This document shows, piece by piece, positions 321-13,743 of a stretch of DNA of 32,000 nt. The notes beneath the pieces were generated by a model. That model saw nothing but the letters and a program-made list of their open reading frames with translations, was not told the origin of the DNA and ran no database searches. The first letter of the stretch is position 1. Every line of letters starts with the position of its first letter. The position numbers and the translations under genes are program-made. Source of the DNA: Candidatus Heimdallarchaeota archaeon (lineage in GTDB: Archaea > Asgardarchaeota > Heimdallarchaeia > Heimdallarchaeales > Heimdallarchaeaceae); the NCBI GenBank assembly GCA_030668875.1, contig DAOVER010000019.1, forward strand, positions 1 to 32,000. Reading direction: 5' to 3'.

Positions 321-1304
321 GTGGACATATTGAAGATCCTTATTACATCTAAGAATGGAGAATTGCTCTATCAGTACGATAGCTTTAGTGAAATCAAAAT
401 TCACGACAATGCTTTAATTACTGGTCTAATCAGCGCAATTGTTGCACTTTCTTCTGAAGTAGTATGTTCTTTCCCACGTGAAATAGAATTTGAGGGTAAA
501 ATTCTCTATTTTTATATAGAAAATGAGTTGATTGTTGCTCTTCTTGTTGATATTGACGCCCCATTTAATGGAGATATTCTTCCAATACTTCTAGCAGAAT
601 TCAAGAAAGTCCAACAGAAGTACAATTTCAGTATTTATCGGGCAATCAAATATGAAGAGGAAGTTTCAACAAGGATAAAAACTGCTCTTGCCAAATATTT
701 GTCCAATATGCAAAAAAATATGCTCACTATCTTTAGGAAAACTGATCTAACTGATTACAAGTCCATGGTGAAGTTGAAAAATGTCGCGCGTGATGTAATG
801 TTTGATGGTTCAAGAGAATTTCTGTCATTTGAAATAATATCTCGTGTTATTCCTGAAGGTTTAGGTAAAGTGCTATATGGTCTAATCGTTGGTCTCCCTG
901 TTATAGTTGTAGGAAATAGAAATCTCGTTGAACCAATGATACATACTTTTCGTCTTCTTTCCCCAACAAGAATACTAAATGTCAAACCATGGTCTTTCAA
1001 ATATGAAATTGGATATGATATTATTGGGACAAATGATTACGCTGAACTTATACCTTCTAGTAATCTGATAATTGTCAATATTGACGAAGGAATTGTTTTT
1101 GGAGGAAACTCATCTGCATATTTTGAAGAATTGGTTAAGCAAGTCTCAAGTCTGAATGCTGTGGAAGCTTTCACCTTTTTAAGAACTGAGTTGGATTGGG
1201 TTTTCCAGTCTCTGGAATCATTATCCATACGAAGTCATTCCAAAGATGTTCTCCCTCTAGAAAAACAAATGATACTTTTTGAATTACTTAAACGTCTTCA
1301 CTAA
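321..1304 (+). CDS. Longin + DENN-like (folliculin-like) domain protein
   Basis: The N-terminal ~125 aa have an Asgard longin pattern (LITSKNGELLY...ALITGLISAIVALSSEV). The C-terminal part (VLYGLIVGLPVIVVG...LLSP...VKPWSFKYEIGYDIIG...IIVNIDEGIV) follows the cDENN pattern and resembles folliculin's C-terminal domain as I recall it. GTG start. Confidence 0.65.
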   Translation: MDILKILITSKNGELLYQYDSFSEIKIHDNALITGLISAIVALSSEVVCSFPREIEFEGKILYFYIENELIVALLVDIDAPFNGDILPILLAEFKKVQQKYNFSIYRAIKYEEEVSTRIKTALAKYLSNMQKNMLTIFRKTDLTDYKSMVKLKNVARDVMFDGSREFLSFEIISRVIPEGLGKVLYGLIVGLPVIVVGNRNLVEPMIHTFRLLSPTRILNVKPWSFKYEIGYDIIGTNDYAELIPSSNLIIVNIDEGIVFGGNSSAYFEELVKQVSSLNAVEAFTFLRTELDWVFQSLESLSIRSHSKDVLPLEKQMILFELLKRLH

Positions 1305-3979: not shown

Positions 3980-4936
3980 TCATTTGAATCCTTTTTGTAT
4001 AATGTATTCAGATAAGTCAATGTTCAATACTTGAACTACCACACTTTCTAAAATACTAAACTCTTCCATGGGTTTTACAAACTCGTTTAGCACATCAATC
4101 TTTCTTCTAGCTTCTTGCTGGCTCTCATTTTTGGCAATAATCATAGAGTAGATGTACTGACTATCAGTTTTTATTATGTATTGATAATCTCCAGAAACCA
4201 TGTATTGTAACATTCCCGTTTTTCCAAATATCCTTTTACTAAAACTTTCAATAGCTGCTAGAAATCCTGCTAACAACGATGGGTCTTCCTCAAGTCCAAT
4301 TTTGTCAATCTCAAGTAAAGGAAACCCATCAATATCTGCAATCATAAACATAAGTGGATCGATTTTTCTTTTTGTAGCAAGTTTTGCAGTGTTATTCTTT
4401 AACCAATTCAAAGCGTTGTCGACGTTTTCACCAGTTTTCATACTGGTTTTGAAGAATTGAAAGGAAGCATTTTCTTTCTCTGCTAAATTGAAAAGATTCA
4501 GGTGATTGATAACAGATTCTAGGTCTTGACTTTCTTTTAAATCTGCTTTATTACATAAAAATAAGATTAAGAATTCATCACGATCGTCTTTAAGATTTAT
4601 AATTCGCCAAAATTCCTCTTTAGCTTCGTCAAAACTATCTGGATCAGCTGAATCTATCATGAATACTAGACCATAAGCTAACTTTACGTATGATTCCCAA
4701 ATTGTTTTACGATAAGATATGTGCCCTCCAAGATCGAAAATATCAACTCTTGCATCTCCTATTTCTGTTGTCTCGAATTGCAAACCCATTGTAGGTCTTG
4801 TTTCTTCGAATTCTCCAGTCATTATTCGCTTCAAGAAAGAAGATTTTCCTGCTTGTGATAACCCTATTATAACTAACGGGATGCCCTTTTCATCGAATTT
4901 CATCTCAGTAGTCATTTTTTTCATCTTATCTAACAA
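3980..4936 (-). CDS. Arf/Sar1-like small GTPase fused to a C-terminal longin/roadblock-like domain
   Basis: G1 GLSQAGKSS, G2 PTMG, G3 DLGGH, G4 NKAD, G5 TSMK. The C-terminal ~125 aa carry DPSLLAGFLAAIESFSKRIF, typical of Asgard longin-like domains. Confidence 0.9.
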   Translation of the reverse strand: MLDKMKKMTTEMKFDEKGIPLVIIGLSQAGKSSFLKRIMTGEFEETRPTMGLQFETTEIGDARVDIFDLGGHISYRKTIWESYVKLAYGLVFMIDSADPDSFDEAKEEFWRIINLKDDRDEFLILFLCNKADLKESQDLESVINHLNLFNLAEKENASFQFFKTSMKTGENVDNALNWLKNNTAKLATKRKIDPLMFMIADIDGFPLLEIDKIGLEEDPSLLAGFLAAIESFSKRIFGKTGMLQYMVSGDYQYIIKTDSQYIYSMIIAKNESQQEARRKIDVLNEFVKPMEEFSILESVVVQVLNIDLSEYIIQKGFK

Positions 4937-5335: not shown

Positions 5336-8095
5336 GTGTGTAAGAATATGAATAGACGGAATTTAATGAAAACAACATTCATTATTCTACTTTTGACACT
5401 TTCTATGATTGGGGGTTCTAATCAAGCTGCTCAAGCTCTAAATTACACTCAAGACCCCTCAAATGAAGAAGTGCAGCAAGTAGCAACTGAACCGGCACAA
5501 GATCAAATAGGATTGCAAGATACAGAAGATACAATTGAAATCTGGATTGTACAAGATTTTGTGATAACGGTATATGATTTGGCATTGATGGAATGTCATG
5601 TGCTAAATCTTTATGGAATTGAAATTGAAGCGGATATAGAAGTATGGATTCAATATGACAATGGTAGTGTTTTCCTCATCTATCAAGAATCAAGAATACT
5701 GTTTCCTTACTTGGAATATATCTTTAATGTAACACATGCTTTCACATCAGTAGGTTTCCATTTAGTTAATCTCAAAGTAATGGATATAACAAATAACCAG
5801 GAAGTTACAACAGAGTGCCAATGGGAAGTTATTGATGGTTATGTAGAACTAGCTGTTATTCAAGACTACGAAGCTCAAGTCGGAATAGAGGTTAAGATGG
5901 AATTTTATATCTATAATGGATATGCAATAGCAAGGGAATATTTCATTGAAGTATTTCTTGATGATGGTTCGGGTCCAGTACTGATACATAATGAAACAAC
6001 GATTATCGCAGCATATGATGTACTAATGGTAGTAATTTACTGGACCTTTCTTGTCGCAGGACATCATGATGTAATTCTAAGAGTTACTGATGTACCTGAA
6101 ACATATGAATGGTTTGCTTATTGCTATTGGGAAGTTTATGATGGGTTCATAGACATATTAATTGAGCAAAACTATGAAGCTTGGATTGGCGTTGAGGAAA
6201 GGATACAGTTCTGGGTTTACAACTACTATGCTATCGATATTACTGCTGATATTTCTGTTTGGATTGACAACGGAACACATACTTATCAGATATATTCTAG
6301 AAAGGATGTAGTAATAAATACTGGCACATACTTCATGGATGAAGTCTTCTATATATTCATCTATGAAGGATTCTGGGATCTCTATGTAGAAGTTTATGTG
6401 ATAGATTTTGATGTTACGTGGATAGAATTTTGTCCAGAAGGATGGTATGTTTATGGCGGTTTCATAAATGTTTGGATCTACCAACAGTACGAAATTTTCG
6501 TTCTTGAAGAAGCTATGATGTATTGTTGGGTCATGAGCAATTATGCTGTTGATCGCGATATAGCTATTGAATTGTGGATAGTTAATGCAACGCATGACAT
6601 CTTGATATATGGAGAAACTACAGTTATTGCTTCAGGAGAAGTGTATAACTTCACGGTATTTTGGACGTTCCTCTATGTGGATTATTGGGATGTAAAACTA
6701 GTTGTTATTGATCTATTCTCAGGTGAGATATATGTTGACTACTGTTATTGGTATGTTTATGGAGGATACTTTGATCTTTATATTTACCAAGAATACTATG
6801 GATTGCTATATGAAGAACTCTGGATGTCATTTGAGATATATAATTTCTACGCAGTAGAGAAAACTGTAGAAATTGAAATACTCATTTTCGATGGAGTAAA
6901 TTATGTTCAAGTGTATTATGCTGTGGATAATATCTTATCACTTACAGGTTACTTCTTGGAACTTTGGTACATATTTGAAGCCGCTGGATACTATGACGTG
7001 ATACTAATTGTAACTGAAGTGGATACGGGACTAGTGTGGATAGAATATTGTTGGTGGTACATATATGCTGAATATCTAGATATATGGATTGTCCAAGATA
7101 TGGAAGCTTCAGTTGGTGAAGAGGTCCTTATGGAATTCTGGATAGTAAACTATTTCTCAGTTGAAATGGATTTGACAGTTGAAGTATGGATAAGTAATGG
7201 AACGCATTCTGAATTAGCTTATACTGATATAACGGTGATAATTGCAGCTAATGGAATTTACACATTCACATTGCCTTATACATTCTTATACGCTGGATTT
7301 TACACCATAACCTTAATTGTAATAGATGCAACAGGTGCTCAATGGTTTGAATACTGTCGATGGGATATCTATGATGGATTCATTGATGTCTGGATAATTC
7401 AAGACTATGAAGCTATTGTAGGGCAAGAAGTATGGATGGTATTCTACGCACAGAGTTACTATAGTTATGATGTACCCATCTACGTAGAAGTAAGAATAGA
7501 CATGGGTTACGGAATTGTCATACTTTATTCAAACACCTTGGTTTTGCTAGCTGGTCAATTACTAACGTGGAACCTTAGTTATATATTCTTGGACCCAGGA
7601 ATATTCCAAATCTACTTTGTAGTTGTTGAATTACAAACTGGCATTGTTTGGGTTGCAGAATGTCGCTGGTACATCCATGATGATGGCTGGTTAGATATAT
7701 GGATTGAACAAGGATACTATGGAGAAGTAGGAGTAAACTATACTATGCAATTTGGTGTAGGAAATCTATTCTCAATAGATAAGAATCTGAATCTTGTAGT
7801 AAAAATAGTCCAAGGAAGTGACTCTTGGATAGTGCATAATGAAACGAAATTGGTACTATCGATGACAACTTATGATTTCTATGTCTATTGGGTATTCGTG
7901 AACGAAGGTTGGTACGATGTTTACTTCATAGTTACTGATGTCGTCACTGGAATCGTTAAAATAGTGGATTGCTGGTGGAAGATTGAGGAACCCGTTATAC
8001 CTGAATTCAGTTTCATAACTCTATTGCCAATTCTAGGAGCTCTTTCTGCAGCAATCTATTTAGTATTTAGAAGGAAAAGGAAACTAACTCACTAA
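5336..8095 (+). CDS. Secreted surface protein: 8 tandem ~102-aa beta-rich (Ig-like) repeats and a PEF-CTERM-like sorting signal
   Basis: N-terminal signal peptide (start probably 5348 or 5366). Repeats begin (I/L)D(I/V)WIxQxY and end CxW. The C-terminus is IPEF + TM helix + RRKRK. Confidence 0.85.
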   Translation: MCKNMNRRNLMKTTFIILLLTLSMIGGSNQAAQALNYTQDPSNEEVQQVATEPAQDQIGLQDTEDTIEIWIVQDFVITVYDLALMECHVLNLYGIEIEADIEVWIQYDNGSVFLIYQESRILFPYLEYIFNVTHAFTSVGFHLVNLKVMDITNNQEVTTECQWEVIDGYVELAVIQDYEAQVGIEVKMEFYIYNGYAIAREYFIEVFLDDGSGPVLIHNETTIIAAYDVLMVVIYWTFLVAGHHDVILRVTDVPETYEWFAYCYWEVYDGFIDILIEQNYEAWIGVEERIQFWVYNYYAIDITADISVWIDNGTHTYQIYSRKDVVINTGTYFMDEVFYIFIYEGFWDLYVEVYVIDFDVTWIEFCPEGWYVYGGFINVWIYQQYEIFVLEEAMMYCWVMSNYAVDRDIAIELWIVNATHDILIYGETTVIASGEVYNFTVFWTFLYVDYWDVKLVVIDLFSGEIYVDYCYWYVYGGYFDLYIYQEYYGLLYEELWMSFEIYNFYAVEKTVEIEILIFDGVNYVQVYYAVDNILSLTGYFLELWYIFEAAGYYDVILIVTEVDTGLVWIEYCWWYIYAEYLDIWIVQDMEASVGEEVLMEFWIVNYFSVEMDLTVEVWISNGTHSELAYTDITVIIAANGIYTFTLPYTFLYAGFYTITLIVIDATGAQWFEYCRWDIYDGFIDVWIIQDYEAIVGQEVWMVFYAQSYYSYDVPIYVEVRIDMGYGIVILYSNTLVLLAGQLLTWNLSYIFLDPGIFQIYFVVVELQTGIVWVAECRWYIHDDGWLDIWIEQGYYGEVGVNYTMQFGVGNLFSIDKNLNLVVKIVQGSDSWIVHNETKLVLSMTTYDFYVYWVFVNEGWYDVYFIVTDVVTGIVKIVDCWWKIEEPVIPEFSFITLLPILGALSAAIYLVFRRKRKLTH
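5534..7990 (+). repeat. Eight protein-level tandem repeats of ~102 aa
   Basis: Aligned by eye from the translation. Divergent at DNA level. Confidence 0.85.
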
Positions 8096-12091: not shown

Positions 12092-12380
12092 ATGTGAAAA
12101 AGTTAAAAAAATATCTTTTATAAATTTCTTTAAGAGATTTTGTATCCCTTTTCTCCATTATTCAATCAGAAATAATAAAGTTGGAAATATAATAAGTTTT
12201 GCTACTCCCAGTATTCGTTATCTGTATAGTCAGATATTACTCCTATTGATTCTGGTCTAAGATGTGATAAAACTGATCCTCCACCTTGAACTATTTCAAT
12301 TTCCATTTCAAGGTATTTCTTTTTAATAAGTTCTGCCATATTTTTGAATAATCAAGTCTGCTTCCATGACGATTGTTATA
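12092..12380 (-). repeat. Direct repeat copy B: degV 3'-end fragment plus ~110 bp of downstream sequence
   Basis: Aligns with 13786-14067 over its length and with degV 19455-19634 in the coding part. Confidence 0.9.
12202..12380 (-). pseudogene. degV 3' fragment, frameshifted
   Basis: Translates to ...NMAELIKKKYLEMEIEIVQGGGSVLSHLRPESIGVISDYTDNEYWE*. It has two 1-nt deletions relative to degV near 12345 and 12367. Confidence 0.88.
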
Positions 12381-12485
12381 CCCTTAGCTCAAACCGTTCT
12401 GTTTTTCTATAGTTGTTTAGAAATTTATTTAAACTAATTCAAAACTTCTTTCAATGGTAATATTTCCAGAAATGAAGCTGTTAAT

Positions 12486-13454
12486 ATGAGTGAATCTAAA
12501 ATCAAAATTGTTGAAGTAATAGATAAAATTGGTCAAGCTAAATGTTGTATGTCTCTAAGAAACATCATGATTTTAGCGATTCTTGCTGGTGTTTATATTG
12601 GTTTTGGGGGGGTATTGTCGATTATTGTAACTCATGATATGCCTGCAAATTTTGGTGTTGGTTTTACACAACTAATTTCTGGTATAGTTTTCTCAGTAGG
12701 ACTGATGTTAGTCGTTTTAGGTGGTGCTGAACTTTTTACAGGAAATAATCTACTAATTATACCTTGCATGGATCGAAAAATAACTCCGTTTCACTTAATT
12801 AAGAACCTTTCAGTGGTTTATATTGGTAATTTTGTTGGTTCTCTTTTATTAGTTGCCATTTTTGTAGGAACAGGAATCTGGAAAAACAATAATTATCTTG
12901 TAGGTGCAAGTTCATTAATAACTGCAAATAGTAAGGTAAATCTCACATTTTTAGAAGCATTTTGTAGAGGAATATTATGTAATTGGTTAGTTTGCTTAGC
13001 TATTTGGATATCTACATCTGCTAAAACAGTAATTGGTAAAATTTTTAGTGTTTTATTCCCAATTATGGCTTTCGTTTCAAGTGGTTTTGAACACTCAATT
13101 GCAAATATGTTTTTCATTCCTTTAGGACTATGGCTGAAAAATTACGATTCAATTGTTTCTGCAGCAGGCTCTCCTGATTTATCGAACCTTACTTGGGGAA
13201 ATTTTTTCTATGGAAATCTTCTTCCTGTTACACTTGGCAATATCTTAGGCGGATTGATATTTGTGGGTTTTCTTTATTGGTTTGTTTATAGAACAAAAGA
13301 CACAATTTGTGGAAGTAGTGATATTCAAAATGGTGAAAAAGATTTGTCTTCCGTAAAAAATAAATCTCAATCTATACCTAATCATATTAGTATAAAAATC
13401 CACAATAACATAAAAAAACGTAAAAACAGTGAGAAATACAAGAAAAAGAATTAA
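12486..13454 (+). CDS. Formate/nitrite transporter (FNT family)
   Basis: LAGVYIGFG, GAELFTGN, YIGNFVG, RGILCNWLVCLA, GFEHSIANMF, VTLGNILGG. It ends in a Lys/Asn-rich tail. Confidence 0.93.
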   Translation: MSESKIKIVEVIDKIGQAKCCMSLRNIMILAILAGVYIGFGGVLSIIVTHDMPANFGVGFTQLISGIVFSVGLMLVVLGGAELFTGNNLLIIPCMDRKITPFHLIKNLSVVYIGNFVGSLLLVAIFVGTGIWKNNNYLVGASSLITANSKVNLTFLEAFCRGILCNWLVCLAIWISTSAKTVIGKIFSVLFPIMAFVSSGFEHSIANMFFIPLGLWLKNYDSIVSAAGSPDLSNLTWGNFFYGNLLPVTLGNILGGLIFVGFLYWFVYRTKDTICGSSDIQNGEKDLSSVKNKSQSIPNHISIKIHNNIKKRKNSEKYKKKN

Positions 13455-13479
13455 AAAATAATTTGTGGTTAGATTCCTC

Positions 13480-13743
13480 ATGGTAGAGATAGTCGCGTTT
13501 TATGCAACACATTGGTGTTCAGCATGTAAAAGATTGGGGAATTTTCTTGAAGATCTTGGAGTAGATGTTAACTGGATTGATATAGATAAAGACAAAGAAG
13601 CTTCAGAAATAGTAATTGAATTAAATAATGGAAAAAGAATTATTCCTACAATAGTTTTTTCCGATGAAACTTTTTTGACAAATCCTGACAAGAACCTAGT
13701 TCTTCATAAGCTAGGTTCGAGTATGTATGATGTGCAACAGTAA
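13480..13743 (+). CDS. Glutaredoxin/NrdH/mycoredoxin-like protein
   Basis: WCSAC (CxxC), DIDKD, GKRIIPTIVF cis-Pro motif. The ATG at 13480 is preferred over the GTG at 13465. Confidence 0.85.
   Translation: MVEIVAFYATHWCSACKRLGNFLEDLGVDVNWIDIDKDKEASEIVIELNNGKRIIPTIVFSDETFLTNPDKNLVLHKLGSSMYDVQQ

Follow-up and report, generated by a model that had tools for sequence, protein, structure and literature searches.

The gene at positions 321 to 1304 (+) of the window, a 32,000-nucleotide stretch of a Candidatus Heimdallarchaeota contig, encodes a 327 aa protein in which a compact longin of the TRAPP/Mon1 type precedes a predicted DENN domain. The protein is not a member of the folliculin (FLCN) or FNIP families, and its Asgard relatives have exchanged their N-terminal longin modules more than once. 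The chances are about even that it acts on small GTPases as a soluble regulator without catalytic activity, of a predicted GEF/adaptor type. Heimdallarchaeal longin-DENN proteins as such are already known, having been reported in 2020 and 2025.

A conserved gene and its C-terminal half

The reading frame is uninterrupted and begins with GTG; translation could instead start at the in-frame TTG at position 330. We found 33 homologues of the protein, with identities of 51-90%. Those that are named belong to Heimdallarchaeota, mostly Heimdallarchaeaceae, and the archaeal origin given to this longin-DENN architecture in an initial annotation was confirmed, as Asgard. In comparisons with four orthologues, the differences concentrate on third codon positions (e.g., 33/19/94 for the three positions), and therefore this is a coding gene under purifying selection. 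Within the genus, 21 of 23 other genomes have an orthologue (the two that lack it are 72% and 76% complete), as do five genomes from other genera of Heimdallarchaeaceae; no orthologue was found among the 16 genomes searched from other families of the order. The open reading frame is a real, conserved Heimdallarchaeaceae gene. Two minus-strand ORFs that overlap it (755-1000 and 1037-1228) were treated as shadows. Promoter and terminator scans, which applied bacterial patterns to this archaeal DNA, gave results at chance level.

Residues 153-327 (777..1301, +) are predicted to adopt a DENN fold, with a cDENN alpha/beta core followed by a helical dDENN. AlphaFold models the DENN core (residues 171-290) with block pLDDT values of 83-94. 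When the C-terminal half was compared with known structures in an exhaustive VIA search, the best match was DENND10 (Z 13.6, rmsd 3.1, 162 aligned residues). The C-terminal domain of FLCN (FLCN-C) scored Z 12.8 (rmsd 3.5, 163 aligned), SMCR8 10.7 and DENND1A 10.3, and the first unrelated fold appeared at Z 6.4. Foldseek placed FLCN at the top (E 3e-5), and its first 18 places include FLCN, C9orf72-SMCR8, FNIP2, DENND10 and DENND1. The initial annotation had read a cDENN pattern in this half and had proposed FLCN, SMCR8 and DENND1 for comparison; all three fall within those 18 places, and this half does not model as a non-DENN fold. The ESM Atlas also agrees with the assignment, which we take as a lead only. 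A likeness to P-loop ATPases (Z about 6) was rejected as a known superficial resemblance of cDENN (PMC3438538).

A Pfam search with the full window protein returned no match. The Folliculin_C profile, applied to the window protein, aligned residues 167-254 with profile positions 3-98 (E 0.025), and 24 of 34 orthologues matched it, the best at E 9.8e-5, with none of the hits reaching the curated cut-off. None of the 34 matched the Pfam uDENN, DENN or dDENN profiles at E up to 1. Since sequence and profile searches of the PDB found no significant DENN match (SMCR8 reached E 0.04), the DENN relationship rests on fold comparison. The segment VKPW..DIIG (residues 221-236; 981..1028, +), with conserved W224, D233 and G236, sits within the stretch matching Folliculin_C. 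It starts at nucleotide 981, not at 987 as first annotated.

The longin and its class

In the full-length AlphaFold model, the longin had a pLDDT below 50. Modelled on its own from a deeper alignment (52 sequences), it reached a pLDDT of 88.5. The refolded domain (residues 1-140; 321..740, +) has five strands and three helices, and the fold searches made with it bore out the longin-like N-terminus that had been proposed. The full-length model has a pTM of 0.56, the placement of the longin relative to the DENN domain being poorly modelled. Among the best 50 VIA matches listed for the longin, the highest were CPLANE (Fuzzy-type, Z 12.7), TRAPP (12.3 and 11.7) and Mon1-Ccz1 (11.1-11.6), with SNARE and adaptin longins next at Z about 10-11. 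The longins of GAP complexes scored lower, with a GATOR1 entry at Z 8.3, Lst4 at 8.1 (rank 39) and FNIP2 at 7.8 (rank 41), and the uDENN of DENND1A scored 7.3. FLCN is absent among the best 50 matches listed, an absence that carries no weight. In Foldseek, adaptin (AP) sigma subunits rank first.

The profile of the compact longin class matches MON1 (E 4e-4) and Bet5 in the PDB. With its own family left out of the TRAPP/Mon1-type Asgard profile, the window longin scored 40.9 bits against that profile, versus 0.3 bits against the Asgard FLCN-type profile. The window longin is of a different class and is not a folliculin or FNIP longin minus its Arg. The description of the protein as folliculin-like in the initial annotation thus holds for the DENN half and fails for the longin.

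We take the arginine finger of FLCN, SMCR8 and NPRL2 longins to lie in an extended beta4-beta5 loop. In the window longin, the beta4-beta5 hairpin FYIENELIV (residues 64-72; 510..536, +) is a tight, two-residue turn in the model, and an Arg anywhere in the hairpin was seen in only 1 of 32 orthologues, so the earlier reading of this loop as lacking an arginine finger was correct. The residue that serves as the finger in these catalytic GAP subunits is documented in PMC9473554 and PMC8213707. The invariant beta1-beta2 glycine G13 (357..359, +) is aligned with the glycine of the Mon1 GKP; a Pro after it, which would make a GP motif, occurs in no orthologue. On alpha1, the small-residue face G35-x-x-x-A39 (423..437, +) is conserved, with G35 in 30 of 32 orthologues and A39 in all 32. 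In the profile alignment, G13 falls on Mon1 G232 and G35/A39 on G250/T254, the Chaetomium numbering of these positions being inferred from equal spacing. Mutation of Mon1 G232 and G250/T254 abolished exchange activity (PMC5216073). By this mapping, the window longin keeps the small residues found on the GTPase-binding face of Mon1. Mon1's alpha0 helix and elbow loop are missing, the alpha2-alpha3 link is three residues long and there is no N-terminal extension. Residues R53/E54/E56/E58 are conserved on beta3.

By fold and by profile, residues 1-140 match TRAPP (Bet5/Trs23), Mon1-Ccz1 and Fuzzy-Inturned best, including the small residues at G13 and G35/A39, but the window protein has a single longin, not the three of the Mon1/Ccz1/Fuzzy tri-longin proteins, fused to a DENN domain, and lacks the alpha0 helix and elbow loop. 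We know of no eukaryotic protein with a TRAPP/Mon1-type longin fused to DENN. Like the Rab GEFs DENND1A/B and DENND10, the window protein is a compact single chain of longin, cDENN and dDENN of similar size, and DENND10 best matches its C-terminal half; unlike them, its family has no Pfam DENN or uDENN match, and its longin only distantly resembles the DENND1A uDENN. FNIP1/2, Lst4 and C9orf72 are also longin-DENN proteins without an arginine finger, but the window longin is far nearer TRAPP/Mon1 and the whole protein is far smaller than FNIP. With FLCN, SMCR8 and the Asgard longins that carry GP and an arginine finger (PMC12290439), it shares the joining of longin and DENN, the FLCN-C fold match and the weak Folliculin_C match, whereas it has no GP, arginine finger or long linker and belongs to the other longin class. 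Among the Asgard DENN proteins described previously are longin-DENN proteins of Heimdallarchaeota that are organised like FLCN and belong to expanded paralogue families (bioRxiv 10.1101/2020.10.19.343400). The window gene resembles that set in its Asgard host, its longin-DENN fusion and the several paralogues per genome (four here). It differs in lying outside the roadblock-Rab-DENN operon of that preprint, in the accessible part of which the longin classes are not separated.

Two longin classes on Asgard DENN domains

A search of 1.8 billion representatives found 101 relatives. Profiles derived from this hit set itself were used to classify 99 proteins: 44 have a compact (TRAPP/Mon1-type) longin, 31 an FLCN-type longin, and 24 are other or partial. 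The GP motif is present in 21 of the 31 FLCN-type proteins and in none of the 44 compact-longin proteins. This motif plus an Arg has been tied to GAP longins, and Asgard longins carrying both have been reported (PMC12290439). In a quick tree made from the DENN columns only, with no eukaryotic sequences and a backbone that lacks resolution, the longin classes are interleaved, and monophyly of the FLCN type was rejected (p-AU 1.7e-8). One compact-longin protein (P0038) and one FLCN-type protein (P0090) are 46% identical over 207 DENN residues, while their N-termini do not align. From the interleaved tree and this pair, it follows that N-terminal longin modules were exchanged more than once on Asgard DENN domains.

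The window-gene orthogroup sits on a long branch of the tree without a resolved sister, and we do not claim a direction of swapping. The literature covered, which is incomplete, held no description of a TRAPP/Mon1-type longin on this class or of repeated longin swapping. Folliculin-like domain organisation in Asgard covers at least two repeatedly swapped longin classes, and a protein that shows it is therefore not necessarily a folliculin ancestor. Eight Asgard DENN proteins (P0055, P0065, P0072, P0073, P0080, P0093, P0105 and P0119) have a Cys/His-rich, zinc-finger-like N-terminus and no longin, and they form one clade on the DENN tree.

The genome contains four DENN proteins: the window gene, two on contig C22 and one on C74. 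The C74 paralogue (C74:82710-83810, +; L051:6711-7811; 366 aa) is an FLCN-type longin-DENN protein that was found in 23 of 23 genus genomes. It has F-D-x3-G at beta1-beta2, with GT, GV or GS where GP is expected, and Arg75 in a long beta4-beta5 loop is invariant in the 31 sequences covering the position. This paralogue, and not the window gene, is the better candidate for the genome's folliculin-like GAP subunit. The C74-type paralogue of one relative (L058/L068) has a divergently oriented gene for an Arf-family GTPase next to it. The C22 paralogues (C22:8097-9500 and 12108-13505, both +; 465-467 aa) have the same compact longin class as the window protein, without the loop Arg. Their longin is followed by an extra middle domain and then the DENN domain, and they are single copy in a complete family genome (L069). 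The core longin-DENN set of Heimdallarchaeaceae is small, with one FLCN-type protein bearing the loop Arg and two or three compact-type proteins, so GAP versus GEF roles could be tested with few proteins. In total, the genome has 29 ORFs with compact-class longin domains and about 43 small GTPases. Contigs C19, C23, C29, C85 and C88 encode a protein family of 665-700 aa with a compact-class longin at the C-terminal end; in the member at C19:6242-8254, the part before the longin looks TPR-like.

Genomic neighbourhood and candidate functions

Downstream, the gene is followed by three membrane-protein ORFs, one ORF of 82 aa, a gene for a subunit of acetate-CoA ligase and one for an Arf-like GTPase with a C-terminal compact-class longin. 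The three small, overlapping membrane-protein ORFs (1349-1687, 1684-2001 and 1979-2239, +) are co-directional with the gene, start 45 bp downstream and are possible operon partners. Their products, of 86-112 aa, are each predicted to have one or two helices in the membrane; they are conserved yet fast-evolving within the family and have no family assignment. The Arf-like GTPase gene (3980..4936, -), a candidate client, is 2.7 kb from the gene on the opposite strand. It has DLGGH at G3, which we take to put a His, like that of Sar1, where the catalytic Gln would be.

Twelve loci of the genus and five genomes from other genera keep this gene order, which survives local inversions; in every genus locus that extends far enough (12 of 12), the GTPase gene lies no more than 5 kb away. 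Only 7.5% of the genome's ORFs have a small GTPase gene within 2.7 kb. As controls, the acetate-CoA ligase, radical SAM, epimerase and IMPDH genes are equally well kept in the block, and the housekeeping neighbours of the C74 paralogue are equally syntenic. The membrane-protein trio shrinks or disappears in L055 and L007. In L007, which holds the divergent orthologue P0032, the link to the Arf-like GTPase is lost, and a Rab-like GTPase fusion is found 3.4 kb away. That region (L007:4717-7381, 2.6-3.4 kb upstream of P0032) holds the Rab-like GTPase with its long C-terminal region and then a gelsolin-domain gene. We treat the linkage to the Arf-like GTPase-longin as a lead and not as evidence of partnership.

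In the GEF/adaptor reading, the DENN half would grip a Rab- or Arf-like GTPase and favour nucleotide release, in the way that DENND1 and isolated FLCN-C act on Rab35. In vitro, FLCN-C by itself is a GEF for Rab35, and what isolated DENN domains are known to do is bind GTPases and promote exchange (PMC3438538). Since the DENN domain is constant behind interchangeable front modules, it is most simply the working part. The longin would be an exchangeable handle that pairs with another compact-class longin, one of which is on the neighbouring Arf-like GTPase. Through such pairing, the two alpha1 helices would either build a GTPase platform like that of TRAPP/Mon1 or keep the DENN domain tethered to its target, and the window protein itself would contribute no arginine finger. 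We favour this reading because the longin is nearest to GEF-complex longins (Z 11-12.7) and farther from GAP-complex ones, because G13 and G35/A39 align with Mon1 residues needed for GEF activity, and because of the DENN fold, the absent GP/Arg and the front-module swapping. The small alpha1 residues also serve longin dimer packing and so are not GEF-specific. The reading is weakened by the missing alpha0 helix and elbow loop, which Mon1 requires for GEF activity, by the close scores of non-GEF SNARE and adaptin longins, by the poor conservation of GTPase-contact residues among DENN proteins and by the poorly modelled placement of the two domains.

Another possible explanation, which we consider somewhat unlikely, is that the window protein is an FNIP/C9orf72-like silent subunit in an archaeal double longin-DENN GAP, with the C74 paralogue supplying the arginine finger. 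Eukaryotic longin-DENN GAPs are heterodimers of a catalytic and a silent subunit (PMC8213707), and the C74 paralogue has both an FLCN-type longin and the invariant Arg75, although it carries GT/GV/GS and not GP. The two genes co-occur within the genus, but any core gene pair would do so within one family, and the genes are unlinked. Moreover, the FNIP2 and Lst4 longins are far weaker structural matches than TRAPP/Mon1, and the two Arg-less C22 paralogues are equally good candidates for the silent role. A complex prediction for the window protein with the C74 paralogue scored 0.00, which weighs neither for nor against binding. The initial annotation had left the choice between an FNIP-like partner and a GEF; both remain candidate roles, and the GEF/adaptor role fits the anatomy better.

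The same-class longin on the neighbouring GTPase, the retained proximity of the two genes and the rarity of such proximity in the genome would also suit a dedicated module, in which longin-longin pairing holds the DENN domain on that G domain at the membrane together with the three membrane proteins. This is unlikely, given the opposite strands, the intervening acetate-CoA ligase gene, the equal synteny of housekeeping genes and the losses in L055 and L007; in addition, Asgard GTPases seldom share operons with their regulators (PMC10933270). A specific form of it, distinctly unlikely, is a natural hybrid of two building blocks of eukaryotic RabGEFs, a TRAPP/Mon1-type longin and a DENN domain, that docks by longin pairing on the Arf-like GTPase-longin and is anchored by the three membrane proteins. 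If true, these parts would together make up a whole module for GTPase activation in an archaeon, open to reconstitution in vitro. We regard as very unlikely a GTPase-independent scaffold or coat adaptor, comparable to adaptin sigma, SNARE longins or DENND10 in Commander. The leading places of AP sigma subunits for the longin and of DENND10 of the Commander complex for the DENN half fit such a role, and the conserved R53/E54/E56/E58 hint at another edge for binding; for both halves, however, the relatives with solved structures mostly belong to small-GTPase regulatory complexes, and the genome is rich in small GTPases. In the literature covered, Asgard small GTPases had not been paired with their GEFs or GAPs (PMC10933270).

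Two other genes of the window vary among relatives. The gene at 5336-8095 (+) encodes a 919 aa protein with weak PKD matches that is 62-80% conserved and is absent from the block in several relatives. The IMP dehydrogenase at 22964-25744 (+; 926 aa) contains an intein with LAGLIDADG; the long form is also found in L052, and an intein-less enzyme of 475-478 aa is found in L054 and L060-L062.
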